A DNA stretch of 64,000 nt from Halorutilales archaeon Cl-col2-1 (GTDB lineage Archaea > Halobacteriota > Halobacteria > Halobacteriales > Afararchaeaceae): positions 1,568,001-1,632,000 of the forward strand of contig CP169074.1 of assembly GCA_041891055.1 (NCBI GenBank), written 5' to 3'. This document shows, piece after piece, positions 21,336-53,957 of this stretch. A model generated the notes under the pieces. It worked only from the letters and a program-made list of their open reading frames with translations. It was not told the origin of the DNA and searched no databases. The translations under genes were made by a program, and so were the position numbers. Numbering within the stretch: position 1 is the stretch's first letter; every line of letters starts with the position of its first letter.

Positions 21336-21558
21336 ACGTAGTAGTCGTACACAGATAGGGATAAGTCTTAGTCCGGGAGAGGGTATATCTGACTAAAACC
21401 GGGAGTCTTCGTATAAAGTGGACGAGATAAACCGAAAACCGGCGGATCTGAACCACAGTCAGTTCACTAAACAGTATACCTCTGGTTCAGACTCCCGATA
21501 AATAAGATGAGGAGCGCTTCGCATGCCTCAACGGTGTCGACTCGCCAAATCAGTGTAG

Positions 21559-44748: not shown

Positions 44749-45846
44749 ATGTCCTGGTACGCCTTATCCAACCTCGATGACGCCCTTGACGCCGCGGAGG
44801 AGTTCCTACTGCCGTTCGACCTCAGGAAGTGGCTCAAGCTCGCGCTCGTAGCCTTCTTCGTCGGAGGTGGAGGCGGCTTCTCGACACCCAACACGTCGAA
44901 CATACCCTCCGAAGGCACCTCGCCCGGTGTGGGAACGGGCGGCGGTCTTCCTACGGGAGAGTTCGCCGACTTAACCCCGATAATAATAGTGGTTGTCGCG
45001 CTTATACTCGGGATTGTACTCTTCTTCGGTGTCATAGGCGGAGTGATGGAGTTCGTCTTCTACGACTCGGTCGTGAGGCGAGAGGTCAGGCTCAAGGAGT
45101 ACTTCTCCGACCGTCTCGGCAAGGGTCTCCGTCTCTTCGGCTTCCGTTTCGGTCTCTCGCTGATCTTCCTGCTTCCGTTCATAGCCGTAATCGCGTCTTT
45201 CTTCTTAGTGGGAGCCGTCGGACTCGCGGGGATATTCCTCCTCATACCTTTCTTCCTCGTCGGCTCTCTCGTGACGGGAGTGATACGGATACTCCTACGT
45301 GACGCCGTCGTCCCCGTGATGATAGCCGACGACGTCGGCGTGATACAGGGATGGCGGAACATCTGGTCCACTCTCAAGTCGGAGTGGAAGCAGTACGGCG
45401 TCTACGTCGTAGCGAGATGGCTCCTCAGCCTGGGTCTCGGAATAGGGGTGGCTATAATCTTCCTACTCGCCCTCGCGGTCATACTAATACCCGTCGGGCT
45501 ACTCGTCCTGCCTGTCTTCCTCCTCGGACTCGATCTCGGGGGGATTGCCCTTGTTATACTCGTCCCCGTCGGACTACTCGCCTTCCTTGCGTCCCTCGTC
45601 GCCTACGGTCTTATACGTGTCCCCGTCGAGACCTACCTGCGTTACTACGCTCTACTCGTCTTAGGCGACGCCAACCAAGAGTACGACCTGATACCCGATA
45701 TGAGACACGAAGACGGAGAAGGAGACGGTGGTGACGACGTCGACGGAGACGGCGACAGTAACGACGGTGGCGACGCCGATAGCCAGGAGAATGAAGACGA
45801 TTACGACGAAGACACCGGTACGGGAGTGACCTCCTCCCCGTCGTAA
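44749..45846 (+). CDS. Haloarchaeal membrane protein (DUF7544-like); last codons supplied by the inserted IS
   Basis: MSWYA..LDDA..FL.P, WLKLALVAFF, multi-TM; stop codon lies in the IS right-end hairpin. Confidence 0.8.
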   Translation: MSWYALSNLDDALDAAEEFLLPFDLRKWLKLALVAFFVGGGGGFSTPNTSNIPSEGTSPGVGTGGGLPTGEFADLTPIIIVVVALILGIVLFFGVIGGVMEFVFYDSVVRREVRLKEYFSDRLGKGLRLFGFRFGLSLIFLLPFIAVIASFFLVGAVGLAGIFLLIPFFLVGSLVTGVIRILLRDAVVPVMIADDVGVIQGWRNIWSTLKSEWKQYGVYVVARWLLSLGLGIGVAIIFLLALAVILIPVGLLVLPVFLLGLDLGGIALVILVPVGLLAFLASLVAYGLIRVPVETYLRYYALLVLGDANQEYDLIPDMRHEDGEGDGGDDVDGDGDSNDGGDADSQENEDDYDEDTGTGVTSSPS

Positions 45847-45990
45847 ACGACGGGGCTTCCCGAACCGCACCGCAGCGTTGGGATATTTGCCGGTCTACGG
45901 TCAGATCTGTTCTTGTGGGGCTACTCTCCCCGTCGATGTGTCGAACAGGCGAACCGATGGCTGGGCCAGACAGCCGTTACTCCTATCCAC
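45826..45990 (-). ncRNA. TnpB omegaRNA/sotRNA scaffold (5' boundary approximate)
   Basis: Overlaps the tnpB 3' end (GATAGGAGTAACGGCTG...CAGCC) through the right-end hairpin; known architecture of IS1341 elements. Confidence 0.65.
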
Positions 45991-47151
45991 AGAGGGATTC
46001 GGAGTTACCGTCTTTCGCATATTCTCAGCCGCATTACAGTCACTATTCGCAACCAGTTCACACTCATCGCAGACGTACAACCCACGTTCAACACGGTTCG
46101 AATCGGCTTTCATGCCACACTCACAGCACGTTATCGACGTAGCCAGTTCGTACTCATCGACCCGCTCAACCTCAATCCCACGTTCTTCAGCTTTGTACTC
46201 GATGTGACTGAGCAGAGTTTCAAACGCCCAGTCATGGAGGCGCTTGTTGCCGTGCCTGCCCCAGTCTTCATCCTCGCGGATGCTTTTCGGATGGCCAACT
46301 GCTATCGTGCCAACATCACGGGCAGCACACTGCTCAACAATGTCTTTCGAGAGAGCGTGCAGGAAATGCTCTTGTCGCCGGGATTTCTTGCGGCGTGCCC
46401 ATTCAGCATGGTTGCTGGGGCCGTTCTCACCTTCCGTGTCGTACTCTTCCTGCCGGAAGTAGTGTGCGTCTTCTTTCAATGTGTTGCCCGGATACAACAG
46501 CGTGTGGTCACCGACAGAGACAGCCGCCGTATTGCAGATACCGAGGTCAACACCTGCCGTCTTTTCACCAGCCGAGTCCTCTGCATCAATGCTGACTTTG
46601 CAGACGAAGTGCAGTTCCCACTGCTCGCCGTTCCAGACGATGCGGATCTGCTGTACGTCTTCTACATTGGTGAGGGATACGTCCGAGCCGGTGTCATATT
46701 CGCAGAGAACAAAGTCGGCCCACCCGTCTTTCAGGTTCTTGCCTTTCGACAGTCGAACCTGCTGGTGTTTCGTATCGAGTTTGAAGCCGTCTTCTTTGAA
46801 CGTGACCGTGCTACGTGGTCGTTCATCGCCGTCTTTGCGGTAGCCCGGTGGGTTAGCGTCTGGATTGTCTTGTTCGAACCACGACTGGAAAGCGCCAGCC
46901 AATTCTTCGACGATTGCCTGACTTGACTGCGAGTTCAAATCTTTCCAGCACTGTTGGTTCTTCATGTAGGACTTGAGCGGTCCCTCGTCCGGAATTTCTC
47001 CGGTGTGATCCCAGATGCGGCCAGCGATCCACCGAGCAACGTTCCAGATTTTGCTGCCGGAACGACTGAGTGAATCGAGGTCACGCACGACACCCTCACG
47101 GTCGTTGGTGAGTGTTGCCGTAATGGTGCGTGTCGTGACCAGATTCACCAT
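45901..47151 (-). CDS. tnpB: RNA-guided endonuclease TnpB
   Basis: PPGYRK, AGVDLG (RuvC-I), TSITCCECG...YVCDEC zinc ribbon, NSDCNAA (RuvC-III). Confidence 0.94.
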   Translation of the reverse strand: MVNLVTTRTITATLTNDREGVVRDLDSLSRSGSKIWNVARWIAGRIWDHTGEIPDEGPLKSYMKNQQCWKDLNSQSSQAIVEELAGAFQSWFEQDNPDANPPGYRKDGDERPRSTVTFKEDGFKLDTKHQQVRLSKGKNLKDGWADFVLCEYDTGSDVSLTNVEDVQQIRIVWNGEQWELHFVCKVSIDAEDSAGEKTAGVDLGICNTAAVSVGDHTLLYPGNTLKEDAHYFRQEEYDTEGENGPSNHAEWARRKKSRRQEHFLHALSKDIVEQCAARDVGTIAVGHPKSIREDEDWGRHGNKRLHDWAFETLLSHIEYKAEERGIEVERVDEYELATSITCCECGMKADSNRVERGLYVCDECELVANSDCNAAENMRKTVTPNPSVDRSNGCLAQPSVRLFDTSTGRVAPQEQI

Positions 47152-47257
47152 ACATAGACTATGACAGTAGAGTGAGTTAATGGCTGTGACTTGGCGTGGA
47201 ATATCCAGCCAGTAGAAACAGTGTCGGAATCTCACCGAAGTTGACGCGATCCACTCC

Positions 47258-47366
47258 CGTCCCGAGAACTTACGTTCTCGTGTGCACGCGAATCTTCCGA
47301 TTCGCGAACGTCCTCAGAAATCGAAGATTTCTGATGTGCGAACGAGAGCTTGCTCTCGTTAACGCC
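47258..47366. repeat. Two tandem double-hairpin micro-elements in the IS left-end palindrome
   Basis: CGTC-[47 nt]-CGTC-[50 nt]-CGCC; hairpins GAGAAC/GTTCTC, CGCGAATC/GATTCGCG, TCAGAAATC/GATTTCTGA, AACGAGAG/CTCTCGTT. Confidence 0.8.
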
Positions 47367-47456
47367 CTGTTCGGTTCTCGGTTCCGACTAAGCGTCGGAA
47401 CGCTCGTCCCTCACGGAAAGGGCGGGATTCTCTCGCTGTGTCAAGATAGACGTCGA

Positions 47457-49304
47457 CTAGCCCACGAATCTCGGGTTGTTCGAGAGTAGCCGCGGCGTGT
47501 AGAGGCTCTTTCTCGGCATCTCTCCGATCTTCTCGTCTATCTCGTCTCTGAGTTCCTCGACGGACATCTCCGTTTCGTCGTCTCCCCTGACGCGGAACTC
47601 GATCTCTTCGCCCTCGATCTCTCTGTCTCCGACTACTGCGACGTAAGGTACCCAGTCCTGTTCGGCGGTTCTTATCCTCTTTCCGACGCTCTCGTCCCTG
47701 TCGTCTATGTCGACACGTACCCCGTCGAGTTCGTCGGCGAGGCTCTCACAGTACTCGGTGTGTTCCTCGCCCACGGGTATGAAACGCACCTGTGTCGGCG
47801 AGAGCCAGACGGGCATACGTGGGGTTTCGAGTCCGTCGGCGTTTTCGAGTATGGCACCGAAGGCGCGTTCGACGCTTCCCGTAGGACTGTAATGGAGGAG
47901 TATCGGCTCTTTCTCCTCGTTCTCGTCGTAGTACTCTATGTCGAACCTGTCGGCGGACTCGACGTCGATCTGTACCGTCGGGTTCTCCATCGGACGTCCG
48001 AGAGAGTCTATCGCCGCGAGGTCTATCTTGACACTCCAGTAATGTTTCCTCTCGGGTATTATCTCGACTAAGACGGGCTCTCCTATCTCGTCTACGAGTC
48101 CCTCCACCCAGTCGCGGTGTTCGTCGTAGTACTCCCTCGTCGCCCTCAGGACGCCGACGTAGTCGAGACCCAGGTCGTCGCCAGTCTCGAAGCCGAGGAG
48201 AGCCTGTTTCGCGAACTCGTCCTGTGCCTCCTCGATGTCGCCACACGCCGTGTGCATGTCGGGCATCGTGAACGCACGGAGACGTTTGAGTCCCGTGAGT
48301 TCGCCTCTCTGTTCACGTCTGAACGAGTAGGTCGACATCTCGTATATACGGAGAGGCAGGTCGTTCGAGGTGATATGCATGTCCCTCATTATCGAGAACT
48401 GACCGAAGCACGCCGCGAACCTCAGCATCATCTTTCTACTCCCCGACTCGAACCTGTACTGACGCTCGCCGAACTTCTCGGAGTGTTCGCTTATACAGTC
48501 GGAGCCGAGGTCGTACATGATCGGCGTCTCGACGGGCATTCCGCCGTAGTCGACGACGAGGTCGTTGACGTACTCTATCAGCGAGTCACGGACACATTTG
48601 CCCTTCGGGTACCATCTCAGGTTTCCGGGGTCGCTGAGTTCGTCGTAGTCGACGTACTCCTTCTGTTTCATAGTCTCGACGTGGGGTGGCTCCTCTCCGG
48701 CTCCCGCCTCGATCCCCTCGACCTCGTCCTCTATGAGGCTCACCATCTCGTCGGACGCTTCTGACATCGACTTGAACCCGACGGGGTCGTGTTCTTCGCC
48801 CTCGGGAGTCAGTACGACGAAGTCGCTCTCCTCTTCTTCTTCCTCTTCGTTGTCTTCGGCTTCGGGCTCGGGCTCTATCTCTGTGGGCTCTATCTCACGT
48901 GAGAGCTCCGACATCGGATGTCCCTTACACGATATCTCGAACGCCTTGTACCAGCCGAAGGGCGCTCTCTTGACCTCGTAGCCTACATCGACGAGACGTT
49001 CCTCGATACGTCTGAGAACGTCGACGGCTGTATCGGGATCACCGAGGTCGCTCGAAAGGTGCGCGTAGGGATAGACCATCACGTTCTCGACTTCGAGCTC
49101 GTCGGCTACGTCACGTATCTCGTCCTCCGCCTGTTCTATCACGCTGTCTATGTCCTCGGAGTCGCCCGACTCGACGGCTATGAACGCCGTGAGAGCCTCG
49201 TCGAGACGTCCCTCGGGCTCTATCTCGGACTCGTCCTCGGCGACAGGAGTCTCCTGTTTCGCCTCGTACTTGATGTAGTCCGAATGTATCAGCAGTAGCT
49301 TCAT
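47457..49304 (-). CDS. thrS: Threonine--tRNA ligase, archaeal type (N-terminal editing domain)
   Basis: MKLLLIHSDY, YPYAHLSS, PFGWYKAF..CKGHP.SELSR, RFAACFGQF, FTMPDMH. Confidence 0.96.
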   Translation of the reverse strand: MKLLLIHSDYIKYEAKQETPVAEDESEIEPEGRLDEALTAFIAVESGDSEDIDSVIEQAEDEIRDVADELEVENVMVYPYAHLSSDLGDPDTAVDVLRRIEERLVDVGYEVKRAPFGWYKAFEISCKGHPMSELSREIEPTEIEPEPEAEDNEEEEEEESDFVVLTPEGEEHDPVGFKSMSEASDEMVSLIEDEVEGIEAGAGEEPPHVETMKQKEYVDYDELSDPGNLRWYPKGKCVRDSLIEYVNDLVVDYGGMPVETPIMYDLGSDCISEHSEKFGERQYRFESGSRKMMLRFAACFGQFSIMRDMHITSNDLPLRIYEMSTYSFRREQRGELTGLKRLRAFTMPDMHTACGDIEEAQDEFAKQALLGFETGDDLGLDYVGVLRATREYYDEHRDWVEGLVDEIGEPVLVEIIPERKHYWSVKIDLAAIDSLGRPMENPTVQIDVESADRFDIEYYDENEEKEPILLHYSPTGSVERAFGAILENADGLETPRMPVWLSPTQVRFIPVGEEHTEYCESLADELDGVRVDIDDRDESVGKRIRTAEQDWVPYVAVVGDREIEGEEIEFRVRGDDETEMSVEELRDEIDEKIGEMPRKSLYTPRLLSNNPRFVG

Positions 49305-49358
49305 AACTCAAGGTTCGACGGACGAGTTAAGTAGCTTCCGTATCCGTCTACTTGTTCC

Positions 49359-50384
49359 TCACCCGGTCTCCTCCTCTAAGACGTCGAGTATCTCGCCGGG
49401 ACCGTGTCTCACGACGTCCGATGCAGGCGCAGTTTCGCTTGCCTCCTCTATGGCGCGTTCGGCTTCCTCCTCTCCCAGACCCGACGTGTTGAGAGAGACT
49501 GCGTCGACGGTTCCCGTAAGGGCTACCTTCTCGTAGGTCTCGGCGACCTCCCCGAGACCGGCTATCTCGAAGTTCTCGTATCCCTTCACTCTCTGTCTCC
49601 CCGCCTCGTGGCACAGTACGAGAGAGTCGGGCATCGAGCCGTGTAGTATCGACGCCGTCACTCCCGAGTAGGCGGGATGAAGTATGCTTCCCTGACCCTC
49701 GACGAAGACGAAGTCCGAGTTGCCCCTCTCGACGACAGTCTCCTCGACGGCTCCCGCCGCGAAGTCGCTCACTACGCGGTCGATGGGATGTCCGCCGCCC
49801 TCTATCATGATCCCCGTCTGTCCCGTAGGTGCGAACTCGGCTTCGTATCCCCTCTCGCGCGCCTCCCCGACTAACTCGACCGCGGTCGTCATCTTTCCCG
49901 TCGAACAGTCTGTTCCGACGGTGAGGACTACGTGAGCCTCGACCTCTCCCGCGACGCCCTCGGCGACAGCCTCGAACTCCGTCTTCCTGACGTCTTCTAT
50001 CTCGGCGTCGTTCTCGTCGGCGAGACGCGAGAACTCGTCGTCCTCACTCAGGAAGTAATGGAGACCAGAGACGACGTCGACTCCGTTTTCGAGTGCGCCA
50101 CGTACGTCGGGTCGCCACGTCTCGTCGAAGCCGCCGCCTATGGGTGCTATGCCTATGTAGAGAGCGTCGATCCCGTGGTCTTCGAGGACGTCTTGGGTCG
50201 ACCCGTAGATATCGACACCCAGACGTGTCTCACCCGACTTCTCGCGGTCGAGGACAGCCACCACCTCGGAGTCGGAGTAACGTATCAGACCGACGGCTGT
50301 CTTCGCGCCGTCTGGGAATCCGCCGTGGGCGAGCACGGCTATTCTCTCGTTTCGGCTTCCGTCTGTGTCTCCGTTATCCCTCAT
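49359..50384 (-). CDS. DUF1611 family protein (DgcN-like)
   Basis: AKTA.G, IAPIGG, SGLH, VGTDC..GKMTT, TGQTGI, VEGQGS..HPAYS. Confidence 0.88.
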   Translation of the reverse strand: MRDNGDTDGSRNERIAVLAHGGFPDGAKTAVGLIRYSDSEVVAVLDREKSGETRLGVDIYGSTQDVLEDHGIDALYIGIAPIGGGFDETWRPDVRGALENGVDVVSGLHYFLSEDDEFSRLADENDAEIEDVRKTEFEAVAEGVAGEVEAHVVLTVGTDCSTGKMTTAVELVGEARERGYEAEFAPTGQTGIMIEGGGHPIDRVVSDFAAGAVEETVVERGNSDFVFVEGQGSILHPAYSGVTASILHGSMPDSLVLCHEAGRQRVKGYENFEIAGLGEVAETYEKVALTGTVDAVSLNTSGLGEEEAERAIEEASETAPASDVVRHGPGEILDVLEEETG

Positions 50385-50676
50385 CGTTGTTGGTGTCTCT
50401 CGCTTTCTCCGATGCCCTTTCATCTTCCTCCCCCTCTTCCTCTCTGAATCTCCTCAGAGCTTCGTTCCACGACTCGGACTCGACGAGTTCGGACTCATGT
50501 TCTGTCTTGATGCCTACGTATCCGCATCTCTCACAGACGTACGACTGTCTTCCGTCGGCGTCCTCAGAAATCTTTGATTTCTCGTGTCTCGGAATCTCTG
50601 ATTCTTTCGTAACGTCGAGGACGTACTCGACGAGGTCGCCTCCGCACCTAGGACAGTTCCTCTCGGTATCTGACAT
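50374..50676 (-). CDS. Small CPxCG-type zinc-finger protein with 18-aa in-frame insert
   Basis: CPRCG...CERCG; ESW.EAL.RF tail. Confidence 0.8.
   Translation of the reverse strand: MSDTERNCPRCGGDLVEYVLDVTKESEIPRHEKSKISEDADGRQSYVCERCGYVGIKTEHESELVESESWNEALRRFREEEGEEDERASEKARDTNNDEG
50559..50616. repeat. Double-hairpin micro-element inserted in frame
   Basis: CGTC-[50 nt: AGAAATC-TTT-GATTTCT and GAATC-TCT-GATTC]-CGTC. Confidence 0.8.
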
Positions 50677-50678
50677 CT

Positions 50679-51656
50679 CTATCTCGGGCTGAACCTTACC
50701 TGCCTCGCGTTCTTCTCCGATCCCTCGACTGTGGTCTCGTCGTCTACCTCACAGACCTCGCCGACCGCCTCCGCGAGTCTGTCCACGTACTCCTCGGCTC
50801 TCTCGTCCCCTCCGAACCCGACTATCTCGCCGTCGGGGAAGACGAGTATCACAGTCTCTCCCGCCTCGACGCGGAGTTCGGGGGTTTCCTCGGGGTCGTA
50901 CTCCGCTTCGACGGGGACGTCCTCGTTGGGCTCGTGCACCGAGAAGAAGACGAGTTCGAGGTCGAGCAAGTCTCCCGTTAGATTGAGCTTGCGCTCGTAT
51001 ATCTCTACTCCGTCGAGCTCCGTCTCGGTCTTTCTCTCTGCCTCTGCTTCGGTATCTTCTGAAAACGGTGGTGACGAAGACGTAGCAACCCAGAACTCGC
51101 CCTCGGGGGTCTCGACGGGTGTCCGTGTGAGGTTGTCGACGCCGTCCGACGACATCGGGTTGTCGTTGTATCCGAGTCTCCAGTCCCACTGCTCGTAGGG
51201 AAGCCTGTCGACGTCCTTCTCCGACTTCTCGACGACAGCGTACGCCGTGTCGCCGTCGACCTCCCAGCCACCCTCGACGGCGTACCCTCTCTGCCTGAGG
51301 TACTCGTTGAGCCCCAGGACGCCGTCGTAACGTGGCTTCCAAGCCATTCCGTTCTCCTCAAATCCTCTCACCACGGCGTCGAAAGCCTCCGCCTCTGACG
51401 AAGACTCCGACGAGTAGACAGATCCCTCTACTGACGCCTCGACCGTGTAGACGTCGCCGTTGACAGTTACGTCCACATCGACGTCGGCACCCGCCCTCGA
51501 CGTCTCGGCTCCGACAGCTTCGACGAACTCGACGAACCCGACATCGGCACCCAGTAGCTCCTCGGCGTCTTCGAGGAGGTCGTCTATGCCGTACCTGAAC
51601 CCTGTCACGAAGACACGCCGTTTTTCGCCGCCTACGTCTATCTCTTTGAGAGTCAC
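50679..51656 (-). CDS. Hypothetical protein with possible divergent TBP-like repeat(s)
   Basis: Acidic ORF with host-like codons; C-terminal LDL..EYDPE..P.L...ILVFPDGEIV.FG. Confidence 0.7.
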   Translation of the reverse strand: MTLKEIDVGGEKRRVFVTGFRYGIDDLLEDAEELLGADVGFVEFVEAVGAETSRAGADVDVDVTVNGDVYTVEASVEGSVYSSESSSEAEAFDAVVRGFEENGMAWKPRYDGVLGLNEYLRQRGYAVEGGWEVDGDTAYAVVEKSEKDVDRLPYEQWDWRLGYNDNPMSSDGVDNLTRTPVETPEGEFWVATSSSPPFSEDTEAEAERKTETELDGVEIYERKLNLTGDLLDLELVFFSVHEPNEDVPVEAEYDPEETPELRVEAGETVILVFPDGEIVGFGGDERAEEYVDRLAEAVGEVCEVDDETTVEGSEKNARQVRFSPR

Positions 51657-51756
51657 TGGCGGAGATACGTCTTTGTCAGATAAAAATCTGAAGGTTGGGT
51701 GTCTCCGTGGAAAAGAGAGATACCGACTGAGATGAGTTAGATCCGGATACCCATCC

Positions 51757-52689
51757 TTATCCTCTTTCTGACAGTCTGCCGTACGTCCATCTCCCTAGCT
51801 TGTAAGCCACGAAGACGGGAACCGCGACCACGACGAGGTAGATGAGGAACTGGATCGTCCGGAAGAGTATCTCGACGCCTCCTGTGACTGTTGTGATAAG
51901 TATACTAACGATGTTGTCGACTGTCTGCCGCACCTCGTTTCTGAACCTGTCGCCGATGTCGTCGGGGACTATCTCGGGCTGTCTCCTCTCCCTCACCTCT
52001 ATCCTCACCGTGGCGTACTCACTCCTCTGGCGTTTCTGTGCAAGATCCGACCTGTATCTACTCATCTTCTCCTTGACTTCGAGCTCCTTATCGGTGACCT
52101 CCATCAGAAGATCGAGCTTCTCCGCGGTCGCGTTCATCTCGGAAATCTCCGACCGCGTCGACTCGTACTCCCGAAGTGTCCGGTTGAGTATGTCGAGCTC
52201 GGTCGTTTCCCTCTCAATCGAGAGCCTGTAGCTCCTAACTTCGTATTCCTCGACCTCGAACTCGTCTCTCGTACTTTCGACGAACTCCTCGAAGTTCTCA
52301 GACGGCACTCTCGCTGTCATACGCGCGGTGAGATAGAGATTCGACCGTCTCCGTGAGCTCTCCTCAACGTATCCTCCTGACCCCTGTGTGAGATCTCTCA
52401 GCCTCGAGACATCGTCGTCCAAGCTCTCCGACTCGATGCTCATATCCGCCTCTTGAACCTCGACGTACTCGCCCGCGCTCGCTCCCGCGTCCTCACCCAC
52501 CCCTACCGTCTCAGGAGCACCTCCAAATCCCGTCTGTTGTGACGGACTCCCACCGGTCATCCCGAATCCGAAGAGGACTGTCGAAACGGCTCCGACTACC
52601 AGAGCTAAGACGAGAACAACTGAGACTAAGACTGAGACGGCGGCGATCCTATTTTCGGACAGCCAGTGTCTGACTTCGTTGAGGTTCAT
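51757..52689 (-). CDS. DUF4349-like membrane protein
   Basis: N-terminal TM, GGYVE, RVP...F, coiled coil, YATV.I...E, C-terminal TM. Confidence 0.8.
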   Translation of the reverse strand: MNLNEVRHWLSENRIAAVSVLVSVVLVLALVVGAVSTVLFGFGMTGGSPSQQTGFGGAPETVGVGEDAGASAGEYVEVQEADMSIESESLDDDVSRLRDLTQGSGGYVEESSRRRSNLYLTARMTARVPSENFEEFVESTRDEFEVEEYEVRSYRLSIERETTELDILNRTLREYESTRSEISEMNATAEKLDLLMEVTDKELEVKEKMSRYRSDLAQKRQRSEYATVRIEVRERRQPEIVPDDIGDRFRNEVRQTVDNIVSILITTVTGGVEILFRTIQFLIYLVVVAVPVFVAYKLGRWTYGRLSERG

Positions 52690-52733
52690 ACGACCGAGTT
52701 ACCCAGAGACGAATCAAGTAACTTTGGGTGGTT

Positions 52734-53957
52734 TTAGACAGATAGATTCTCGATGCCTTTCTCGTACTCGGTGAGGTTGTCGTAGCCGTCGTCTCTCACG
52801 ACGACGAGATCCTCGACCCTCACGCCTCCGATGTCCTGGTAGTAGAGCCCCGGCTCGACAGAGACGACGTGCCCCGCTTCCAACTCGCCCCCTCCCGACG
52901 ACAGGCGCGGCATCTCGTGTATGTCGAGACCGACGCCGTGTCCCGTCGAATGTATGAATCCCTCCTCAGCACCCTGTCTCTCGGTGTCGTAACCCACCTC
53001 CTCGTACGACTCACAGACTGCGTCGTGTACCTCTTCTCCTGTCACCCCTGCGCCCTCGTCGAGTACGTCGAACGCCGCCTCCTGTGCCCTCACAGTCGCC
53101 TCGTACATCTCGCGTACCTCGTCGGTCGGCTCGCCCTTGACAAATGTCCTCGTCATGTCGGCGTGGTACTTGAGACGTCTCGGAAATATGTCGACTATTA
53201 CGGGCTCACCCTCTCTTATCACGCCCGAACCCCTCGAATGCGGGTCAGCTGTTTCCTCTCCCGAGGCGACTATAGACTCGTCGAGGTCACATCCCGCCCT
53301 TATGAGGTCGACCTCTATCTCTGTCCTCACCTTCTCGGAGGTCAGAGCCTCTCCGTCTGTTAATCTTTGATTAACAGGCTCATCAATCTTCGATTGATGA
53401 ACGTCGTGAACGAGTCTTCCGTCCTTGACCTCGGCTTCCCTCAGGAGTCTCTCGGCGACCTCCATCGCGTTCTCGTTCGCTCTCTGTGCCGCCTTTATCT
53501 TCCTTATCTCCTCGTCGGTCTTTACCGCCCTCGTCCCCTCTATCCCGTCGTCTACCGCGGTGACCTCGAATCCCCTCTCACGGAGAGCCTCGGCGGAGTA
53601 AAGGAAGAAGTCACGCGGTACACATACCGACTCGACGCCGTACTCTTCGAGGAACGACGCCGCGACCTCTATCTCGGCGTCCTCGCTCCCTCTTATGTCC
53701 CCTGTGGTGTACTCGGCTGTCGACCTCACCTCGTCGGCGAGTGACTCCTTCTTAGCGCGGCTATACTCCAAGGGTGAGACGAGTAGAACGGTCTCGTCTT
53801 GCGTCCTCAGAAGGCTGAAGGGATCGGGTGCCTCGAACCCCGAGACGTAGTACATGTCGCTGTCGTCCGACGAGTCGGTGCGGAGGTAGGCGTCACAGAC
53901 CTCGGTCTCGACGGCTTCGTCTATGCTTGCAGTCCTCCCACTATCTCGGTCTGTCAT
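52734..53957 (-). CDS. M24 (Xaa-Pro) peptidase with 16-aa in-frame insert
   Basis: RAVKT, DIFPR..YHADMTRT, HSTGHGVGLDIHE, EPGLY, GVRVED. Confidence 0.93.
   Translation of the reverse strand: MTDRDSGRTASIDEAVETEVCDAYLRTDSSDDSDMYYVSGFEAPDPFSLLRTQDETVLLVSPLEYSRAKKESLADEVRSTAEYTTGDIRGSEDAEIEVAASFLEEYGVESVCVPRDFFLYSAEALRERGFEVTAVDDGIEGTRAVKTDEEIRKIKAAQRANENAMEVAERLLREAEVKDGRLVHDVHQSKIDEPVNQRLTDGEALTSEKVRTEIEVDLIRAGCDLDESIVASGEETADPHSRGSGVIREGEPVIVDIFPRRLKYHADMTRTFVKGEPTDEVREMYEATVRAQEAAFDVLDEGAGVTGEEVHDAVCESYEEVGYDTERQGAEEGFIHSTGHGVGLDIHEMPRLSSGGGELEAGHVVSVEPGLYYQDIGGVRVEDLVVVRDDGYDNLTEYEKGIENLSV
53354..53405. repeat. Double-hairpin micro-element inserted in frame
   Basis: CGTC-[44 nt: (C)TGTTAATC-TTT-GATTAACAG and CATCAATC-TTC-GATTGATG]-CGTC. 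Confidence 0.85.

Follow-up and report, generated by a model that had tools for sequence, protein, structure and literature searches.

Two-hairpin units ending in GACG, in insertion sequences and in frame within genes of a haloarchaeal genome, as a probable family of non-autonomous mobile elements

What are the four short segments, each built of two hairpins, that lie within about 6 kb of contig 1 of Halorutilales archaeon Cl-col2-1, and how did two of them come to lie in frame within genes? The segments, called E1–E4 here and flanked on the + strand by CGTC and CG(T/C)C, were marked by an initial annotation of a 64,000-nt window (contig 1, 1,568,001–1,632,000, of the source genome, G000, which is 2.06 Mb long with 55% G+C; coordinates below are window positions unless a contig is named). 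The reading that we favour, with a probability of roughly 0.7, is that they are lineage-specific, minimal, non-autonomous mobile elements resembling repetitive extragenic palindromes (REPs) and haloarchaeal PATEs, mobilised in trans by a TnpA transposase, with the copies in genes filtered by selection and retained in the encoded proteins. Taken by itself, the part of this reading that the units are mobile insertions filtered by selection in genes is very probable.

Positions, flanks and lengths of the four segments are as the initial annotation gave them. All are read on the − strand, as are all the genes around them, and consist of GACG (GGCG in E2), a T, two hairpins with a short linker between them and a closing GACG; with both tetramers E1, E2, E3 and E4 measure 55, 58, 58 and 52 nt, and with one 51, 54, 54 and 48 nt. 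E1 (47258–47312) is a 51-nt unit with 4-nt loops in hairpins A and B and a 3′ GACG, and E2 (47309–47366) is a 54-nt unit located 3′ of GGCG, head to tail with E1; both are within the left end of an insertion sequence (IS). E3 (50559–50616) is a decayed 54-nt unit in frame between two CxxC knuckles of the gene for a 100-aa zinc-ribbon protein (50374–50676, − strand; Pfam matches of this small protein are weak and all under the curated cut-offs). E4 (53354–53405) is a 48-nt unit in frame in a gene for an M24 metallopeptidase of the Xaa-Pro aminopeptidase type (52734–53957, − strand; Pfam Peptidase_M24 4.2e-48, Creatinase_N 6.1e-08), where it encodes residues 186–201. Folded as single-stranded (ss) DNA, E1, E2 and E4 reach −17.7, −16.5 and −14.2 kcal/mol (z −4.66, −5.29 and −7.31; 0, 1 and 0 of 200 shuffles as good), and the decayed E3 −6.1 kcal/mol (z −1.14; 25 of 200).

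The family is wider than these four copies, as the genome scan proposed in the initial annotation confirms. An nhmmer profile seeded with 17 distinct strict units (19 matches before deduplication) and iterated once finds 104 units in G000 at E ≤ 0.01, 93 on contig 1 and 11 on contig 2, with 52 on each strand and 63 of full length; E1 (E 2.6e-10) and E4 pass the threshold, and E2 and E3 fall below it. The motif AATC-NNN-GATT occurs 194 times (~20 estimated from base composition), perfect hairpins with a 9-bp stem and a 3-nt loop number 141 in the genome against 4 in shuffled contig 1, and two or more adjacent hairpins are present at 130 places. A 26-nt hairpin-A pattern allowing up to one mismatch has 59 matches in G000 and 52 in its congener G001, whereas four genomes from two further families have only 10, 8, 3 and 3 and the other 35 relatives none; the reversed control has no match in any genome. 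Without mismatch the pattern is present in 4 of 401 genomes sampled from the class, none of them beyond two families. These counts indicate that the family expanded in this genus. Rfam has no family matching the units; its sole matches are the tnpB-linked sot0042 and two weak ones.

A typical unit is 48–49 nt long and contains a T, hairpin A, a GCC(A) linker, hairpin B and a constant 3′ GACG. Each hairpin spans 19–21 nt, with loops mostly of 3 nt and stems that start with TCG or CGA. Hairpin A has an 8–9-bp stem, a 3-nt loop, a constant AATC/GATT core and two or three covarying pairs, and hairpin B has a 7–9-bp stem of about eight recurring types. The claim that stems are kept while the sequence diverges is borne out: among 22 units hand-picked as well formed, 97.6% of 327 cells are paired (11–46% in slid controls) and double-sided stem changes number 53, compared with 13.3 in shuffles, none of 500 of which reaches the observed value. 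No one-sided pair changes and no G-T intermediates are seen in this set, and this absence of wobble pairs suggests that the hairpin under selection is one of DNA, not RNA. Of 43 pattern-parsed units, 40 have the variable dinucleotide of hairpin A fully paired, in eight combinations.

Comparison with related genomes reveals empty sites for all four copies, in accord with the proposal that they are non-autonomous insertions. The IS containing E1 and E2 is a TnpB-only IS200/IS605-type element (IS1341-like; 45825–47444, − strand, 1,620 nt), all of which is absent from the syntenic locus of G001, where the flanks 45300–45824 and 47445–48000 are contiguous. A second copy of the IS on contig 16 of G001, 90% identical, has its left-end terminal segment joined straight to the body and lacks the 105 nt of E2 and E1, with the empty site reading ...GGGCG|GGAGTG.... 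E1 and E2 are therefore two units that landed within the IS left end; the two non-coding copies of the initial annotation are not free ones. A fifth hairpin (47370–47401, − strand) is part of the left-end terminal segment and is also found in the G001 copy, and is therefore not an inserted unit. TCTATC precedes the IS in both G000 and contig 16 of G001, and is probably the target or transposon-adjacent motif (TAM) of the IS itself.

The G001 orthologues of the two host genes lack exactly the 54 nt of E3 and the 48 nt of E4, the latter in a gene 96% identical. At both sites the G001 sequence has 2–3 substitutions within 3–6 nt of the junction, the flanks being 94–99% identical. The sequencing sets that best match the window DNA are hypersaline-lake metagenomes, and contigs from three of these (X2, X3 and one of X1) have empty joints at E3 and E4; these contigs are G001-like and not independent of G001, and no within-species polymorphism at E3 or E4 is seen among the contigs of X1–X3 matched to the window. 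A search for related loci among genome contigs returned only one unrelated bacterial peptidase. None of 29 orthologues of the M24 peptidase has the E4 insert: 24 have a clean gap of 15–16 residues, one a gap in two pieces, and the remaining four carry their own, unrelated residues in that loop. Asp-Gly spans the gap in 19 of the 24 proteins with a clean gap (at the protein level; the DNA was not checked). An AlphaFold2 model of the peptidase (mean predicted local distance difference test score, pLDDT, 87; 28-sequence alignment) has a single internal segment with pLDDT below 50 (residues 187–196), and it lies in the insert.

The ends of the units show how insertion may proceed. Of the 63 full-length units, 50 close with GACG at the 3′ end, whereas only 27 have GACGT as their 5′ flank and 52 a 5′ flank ending in CGT; this combination of a variable 5′ flank with a constant 3′ end points to insertion 3′ of xxCG by an element that carries its own GACG. 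Empty sites read ...GGCG|, ...AGCG| and ...CTCG|, and a filled site differs from an empty one only by the unit, with no target duplication. In two pairs of paralogous IS right ends the site is filled in one and empty in the other, after ...AGCG and after ...CTCG in a hairpin loop. Units form head-to-tail arrays in which neighbours are unlike each other. A constant GACG end placed after an NNCG site explains both these arrays of unlike units and the apparent regeneration of the target, a claim of the initial annotation that is upheld in the sense that units beside a CG-ending tetramer bring a 3′ GACG of their own.

Unit content differs between the congeners. Matches to G000 were found by BLAST for 19 of 20 fetched G001 loci; flank pairs map close together for nine, and all nine differ in content, with the number of units in arrays varying between the two genomes at the same loci. 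Insertions present only in G001 include a 49-nt unit, a group of three units at a different site and 48 nt within an array of the Hel308-like helicase gene, and a 48-nt unit specific to G000 (contig 1, 1,843,458–1,843,505) sits between otherwise identical flanks. On a larger scale, G001 has ~2.2 kb of IS and unit arrays where the G000 flanks are 138 nt apart (window ~21360–21498; contig 1, 1589360–1589498).

Frame preservation, which the initial annotation had extended to copies outside genes, does not hold there. If a unit is called coding when it has an open frame and coding-like flanks, the 63 full-length units comprise 13 coding and 50 other units. All 13 coding units have lengths that are multiples of three (3n; 48 nt in eight, 51 nt in four and 54 nt in one), whereas only 15 of the 50 non-coding units do (47 nt in one, 48 nt in 10, 49 nt in 34, 51 nt in two, 54 nt in one and 57 nt in two; Fisher p 3.6e-6). 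The GAC frame is likewise stop-free in just 24 of the 50 non-coding units. This difference identifies frame preservation as a selection filter and not a property of the element, and such a filter implies that the inserts are translated. We infer from the 3n and stop-free bias that they are retained in the proteins, to which they would add 16–18 residues.

There are 11 firm host genes, all with the insert forward and in phase GAC|G: those for S-adenosylmethionine (SAM) synthetase, methionyl-tRNA synthetase (MetRS), a Hel308-like helicase, a class I/II aminotransferase, ThiN, a GT4 glycosyltransferase, a phosphodiesterase, a thioredoxin-domain protein and a 209-aa protein of unknown function, together with the M24 peptidase and the zinc-ribbon protein. 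Two less certain forward cases are the N-terminus of a DeoC aldolase and one weak open reading frame (ORF), and reverse cases are an integrase with two units and one site common to three TnpB paralogues. In the latter (G000 contig 1, 129990, 219448 and 1844291), which are diverged, the reverse unit is in frame at the same position, within the loop of a CCGAGAAC/GTTCTCGG hairpin. A family B DNA polymerase with inteins (contig 1, 641649–646688) has a different type of hairpin pair in frame in the LAGLIDADG endonuclease region of the intein.

Forward phase 0 is expected for 0.375 of the survivors, given how GACG and CGTC are phased in gene calls and what fraction of the non-coding units is stop-free; 11 of 13 or 12 of 14 are observed (p 7e-4 or 3e-4). 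The coding inserts are 30% acidic and 11% hydrophobic, whereas the commonest alternative frame of the family would encode basic, hydrophobic peptides (8% acidic, 31% hydrophobic). The G000 proteome is acidic, as read from translated ORFs, and selection for halophile-compatible loops can explain the bias towards forward phase 0, to which strand-specific insertion may also contribute.

The inserts in SAM synthetase and MetRS are common to G000 and G001. The SAM-synthetase insert is absent from all four aligned outgroups, and the MetRS insert from two of them (G011 and G020); in G008 this MetRS loop contains additional residues unrelated to the insert. The MetRS of G027, which belongs with its congener G011 to another family, has a different two-hairpin unit (AGTC/GACT core) at the same codon, and the site is empty and rich in GACG in G011; to judge by these sequences, the codon has been struck independently in that family.

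Units are associated with IS200/IS605-type elements. G000 has 29 diverged tnpB loci, and 29 of the 104 units are within 700 nt of them. Units recur in the loops of IS-end palindromes, including left ends beside TnpA genes in G001 and G011. G000 contains a single Y1 gene (~979.0–979.4 kb, contig 1; PF01797, E 5.6e-39), an intact 135-aa open frame with the HUH and Tyr motifs read from its sequence, divergent from a tnpB; among solved structures it matches only IS200/IS605 TnpAs (1e-28 to 2e-16). The search for a Y1 enzyme that the initial annotation proposed is therefore answered in part: an intact IS200-type TnpA is present, but it is paired with a tnpB, and no RAYT-like gene is found in G000. 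Nor does any IS with hairpin A and B ends turn up, either next to the TnpA genes of G001 and G011 or among the right ends of 26 of the 29 tnpB loci. In the TnpA-bearing IS, the left end does contain a hairpin of the hairpin-A type, which may be an old inserted unit. Adjoining the TnpA gene is a 211-bp block (contig 1, 979411–979620) with six family hairpins in the loop of an outer palindrome; further copies of 98% identity lie at 533432–533642 and on contig 2 (51514–51724), and shorter two-hairpin versions at three more places. Unit orientation is related to local GC skew (odds ratio 3.9, p 0.018). We give this TnpA about an even chance of being the mobilising enzyme, reasoning from its sequence and company.

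In the mechanism we propose, a unit would insert on the 3′ side of a tetramer ending in CG (NNCG, often GACG), leaving no target duplication, and its own GACG end would provide a new site with each insertion, so building head-to-tail arrays of unlike units. Transfer would be by ssDNA 'peel and paste', putatively in trans by the genome's single canonical IS200-type Y1 TnpA. Favoured sites would be those prone to be single-stranded: loops of IS605-type terminal hairpins, edges of existing units and GAC|G (Asp) codons. Copies in genes would persist only if 3n, stop-free and encoding acidic hydrophilic peptides, and those that persist would be translated as surface loops of 16–18 residues. A bolder version, which we consider rather doubtful, is that this is an archaeal counterpart of REPINs and Rickettsia palindromic elements (RPEs) in which one TnpA keeps more than 100 self-targeting units, homing to ssDNA loops of IS605 ends and to coding-strand GAC|G codons, with the gene bias partly reflecting strand-specific insertion into the displaced non-template strand. 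If so, units homing to their ends possibly disable IS605-type elements, and essential enzymes (MetRS, SAM synthetase, Hel308) would receive a steady supply of translated acidic loops.

Several observations weigh against the favoured reading. The empty G001 sites of E3 and E4 both lack GACG, so that the empty-site orthologues anticipated by the initial annotation exist, but not with the single GACG it expected. One of the G001-specific units, of 49 nt, has AT-rich ends and no CG tag, and the two IS with definable ends are flanked by TCTATC or TCTAA and not by a CG tetramer, and their termini are of other types than those of the units. The presumed cleavage site is 1 nt from the hairpin foot at one end and 0 nt at the other. 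IS608-type recognition uses a guide tetranucleotide, for which hairpins that abut the cleavage motifs leave no room, and the recognition rule would have to differ. No TnpA is found in G027, G020 or G035 (91%, 78% and 78% complete) despite their few units; G001 and G011 have four TnpA hits each. When the replichores are split by the sole chromosomal orc1 and the skew minimum, their relation to unit orientation is not significant (p 0.068). This orc1/cdc6 gene (~1.52 Mb, contig 1) lies at the cumulative GC-skew maximum, not the minimum, and contig 2 has two more copies. The gene calls behind the statistics are crude codon-usage calls. Finally, hairpin A and B types combine freely, and at least one strain-specific unit could be a gene conversion from a paralogous IS end.

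These last two points would suit spread or reshuffling without a transposase, by gene conversion, template switching or replication slippage between palindromic arrays and paralogous IS ends. The combination of hairpin types is modular, the G000-specific unit at 1,843,458–1,843,505 is 98% identical to the unit at the equivalent place of a paralogous IS right end, and array unit number varies between congeners. However, lone units are present in unique genes that have no relation to one another (M24 peptidase, zinc-ribbon protein, MetRS, SAM synthetase) and no repeat nearby to act as donor, adjacent array units are dissimilar, a variable 5′ flank accompanies a constant 3′ end, and the MetRS codon was apparently struck independently in another family; we regard this route as unlikely. 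Much the same low standing is given to a REP-like function selected by the host, with units serving as transcript ends, mRNA stabilisers, protein-binding sites or IS605 brakes and mobility being secondary. Such a role would be expected neither from the lack of G-T wobble pairs, by which the structure is read as DNA, nor from the placement of non-genic loci, where no REP-like preference for gene 3′ sides is evident (17 between divergent, 14 between convergent and 18 between tandem genes, on the crude calls), nor from the turnover of unit content between congeners at compared loci and the exact motif being in only 4 of 401 genomes of the class. It would account for the strict maintenance of pairing by compensatory changes and for the recurrent placement in IS605-type terminal hairpins, as proposed for Haloquadratum SMR-A in passages of PMC3119063. 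It would also suit the two units that abut tRNA gene 3′ ends: they share a few bases with the genes for tRNA-Pro(CGG) and tRNA-Ile(GAT) (contig 1, 182000–182400 and 1656150–1656600).

Removal of the copies in genes before translation, by RNA splicing or DNA excision, was an alternative offered by the initial annotation, and it is very improbable. The contrast between 13 of 13 coding and 15 of 50 non-coding units with 3n length, together with the stop-free frames of the coding copies, argues against it, as do the unusually acidic, hydrophilic peptides and the state of E3, still in frame although most of its pairing is gone. A bulge-helix-bulge intron was considered and dropped, since the fold consists of two plain hairpins and the frame is conserved. 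An origin by chance or base composition has a negligible probability given the covariation controls, the 59 motif matches against none for the reversed control and the 141 perfect 9-bp hairpins against 4.

The RPEs and Haloquadratum repeats named by the initial annotation are the right comparisons. CGTC-tagged REPs are known in five bacterial phyla and include RPE-4 and RPE-6 of Rickettsia conorii, with intragenic copies in synthetase, helicase and repair genes and no dedicated transposase, according to the sections of Di Nocera et al. (2013; PMC3733652) that describe them. As portrayed there, they too are short multicopy palindromes with a terminal CGTC (GACG on the other strand) and no dedicated flanking transposase, some copies of which are in frame in genes, including those for tRNA synthetases and helicase or repair proteins, and add ~16–30 residues. 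Those REPs (CGTC-1 to CGTC-4) have 8–9-bp stems starting with A/T, 4–5-nt loops and a CCA tail, and form mostly head-to-head dimers, whereas the units here are from a haloarchaeon and have 3-nt loops, a loop-closing AATC/GATT core, a GCC(A) linker ((T)GGC on the other strand), an obligate two-hairpin build and head-to-tail arrays. Judged on sequence, the units are of the same kind as the bacterial CGTC-tagged REPs but lack their defining details of loop, stem start, tail and dimer type. RPEs in general insert in frame into unrelated housekeeping genes and are retained in the product; here in-frame inserts are found in the 11 firm hosts, and the 3n and stop-free bias suggests that they may be retained in the protein.

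Among haloarchaea, passages of Dyall-Smith et al. (2011; PMC3119063) describe for Haloquadratum walsbyi both PATEs, with 52-bp terminal-only forms and strain-specific insertions, and 110-bp SMR-A repeats that target IS605-type palindromes. PATEs as presented there are similar in having no transposase gene, no inverted terminal repeats, near-terminal palindromes, no target duplication and a shortest form of ~50 bp, and SMR-A in inserting into near-terminal palindromes of IS605-type elements. PATEs, however, are the fused ends of a given IS605-type element, and no parent IS with hairpin A and B ends was found here; SMR-A repeats are ~110 bp long with inverted terminal repeats; and in-frame inserts in host genes are not described for either in those passages, supplements aside.

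The bacterial REP/BIME-RAYT (REPIN) system, as outlined in parts of PMC2817692, PMC3116915 and PMC3479197, also features a tetranucleotide at the hairpin foot, many copies per Y1 gene and composite arrays. Compared with the same accounts, the tag here is GACG and not GTAG, arrays are head to tail and not alternating, and the Y1 gene is a canonical 135-aa IS200-type TnpA in a tnpA-tnpB IS. The hairpins beside the TnpA gene, moreover, lie in the loop of an IS-end palindrome. Peel-and-paste transposition of IS200/IS605 elements (IS608, ISDra2; PMC10055086) involves a transposon-adjacent and a transposon-encoded motif. Such elements go in 3′ of a short specific motif that is not duplicated, end on the right in a constant motif, and have subterminal hairpins and non-autonomous relatives mobilised in trans, all of which have likenesses here, as has a hint of strand bias. 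The units differ from these elements in that their hairpins directly abut the cleavage motifs. Their flank and end motifs are of the same kind (xxCG and GACG), from which it follows that the element targets its own end.

REP-like hairpins and in-frame repeats that add peptides are thus already known from bacteria. For archaeal genes no published description of in-frame hairpin inserts was found in the literature searched, supplements not included, and the passages of a 2024 review of MITEs (miniature transposable elements with inverted repeats; PMC10969869) mention in-frame fusions for bacteria only. The genus provides a natural experiment in which congeners differ by single units at unique sites and essential enzymes have 16–18-residue inserts of known age. 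This makes it possible to ask how small a Y1-mobilised element can be, how a target is chosen when the hairpin abuts the cut, and how halophilic proteins accommodate random loops. For annotators, such inserts are neither sequencing errors nor introns.

The remaining features are those of the IS that contains E1 and E2. Its tnpB gene (45901–47235, − strand) encodes 444 aa as listed from the first start codon, with Pfam matches to OrfB_IS605 (1.4e-15) and Cas12f1-like_TNB (2.3e-16). The 3′ end of tnpB overlaps a region on the same strand (45835–46010) that matches Rfam RF02656 sot0042 at 86.5 bits (E 1.3e-21), just under the gathering score of 88, and is likely the guide-RNA region of this TnpB, a predicted sense-overlapping transcript (sot) of an IS1341-type tnpB. 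The genes around the units also include thrS (47457–49304, − strand).

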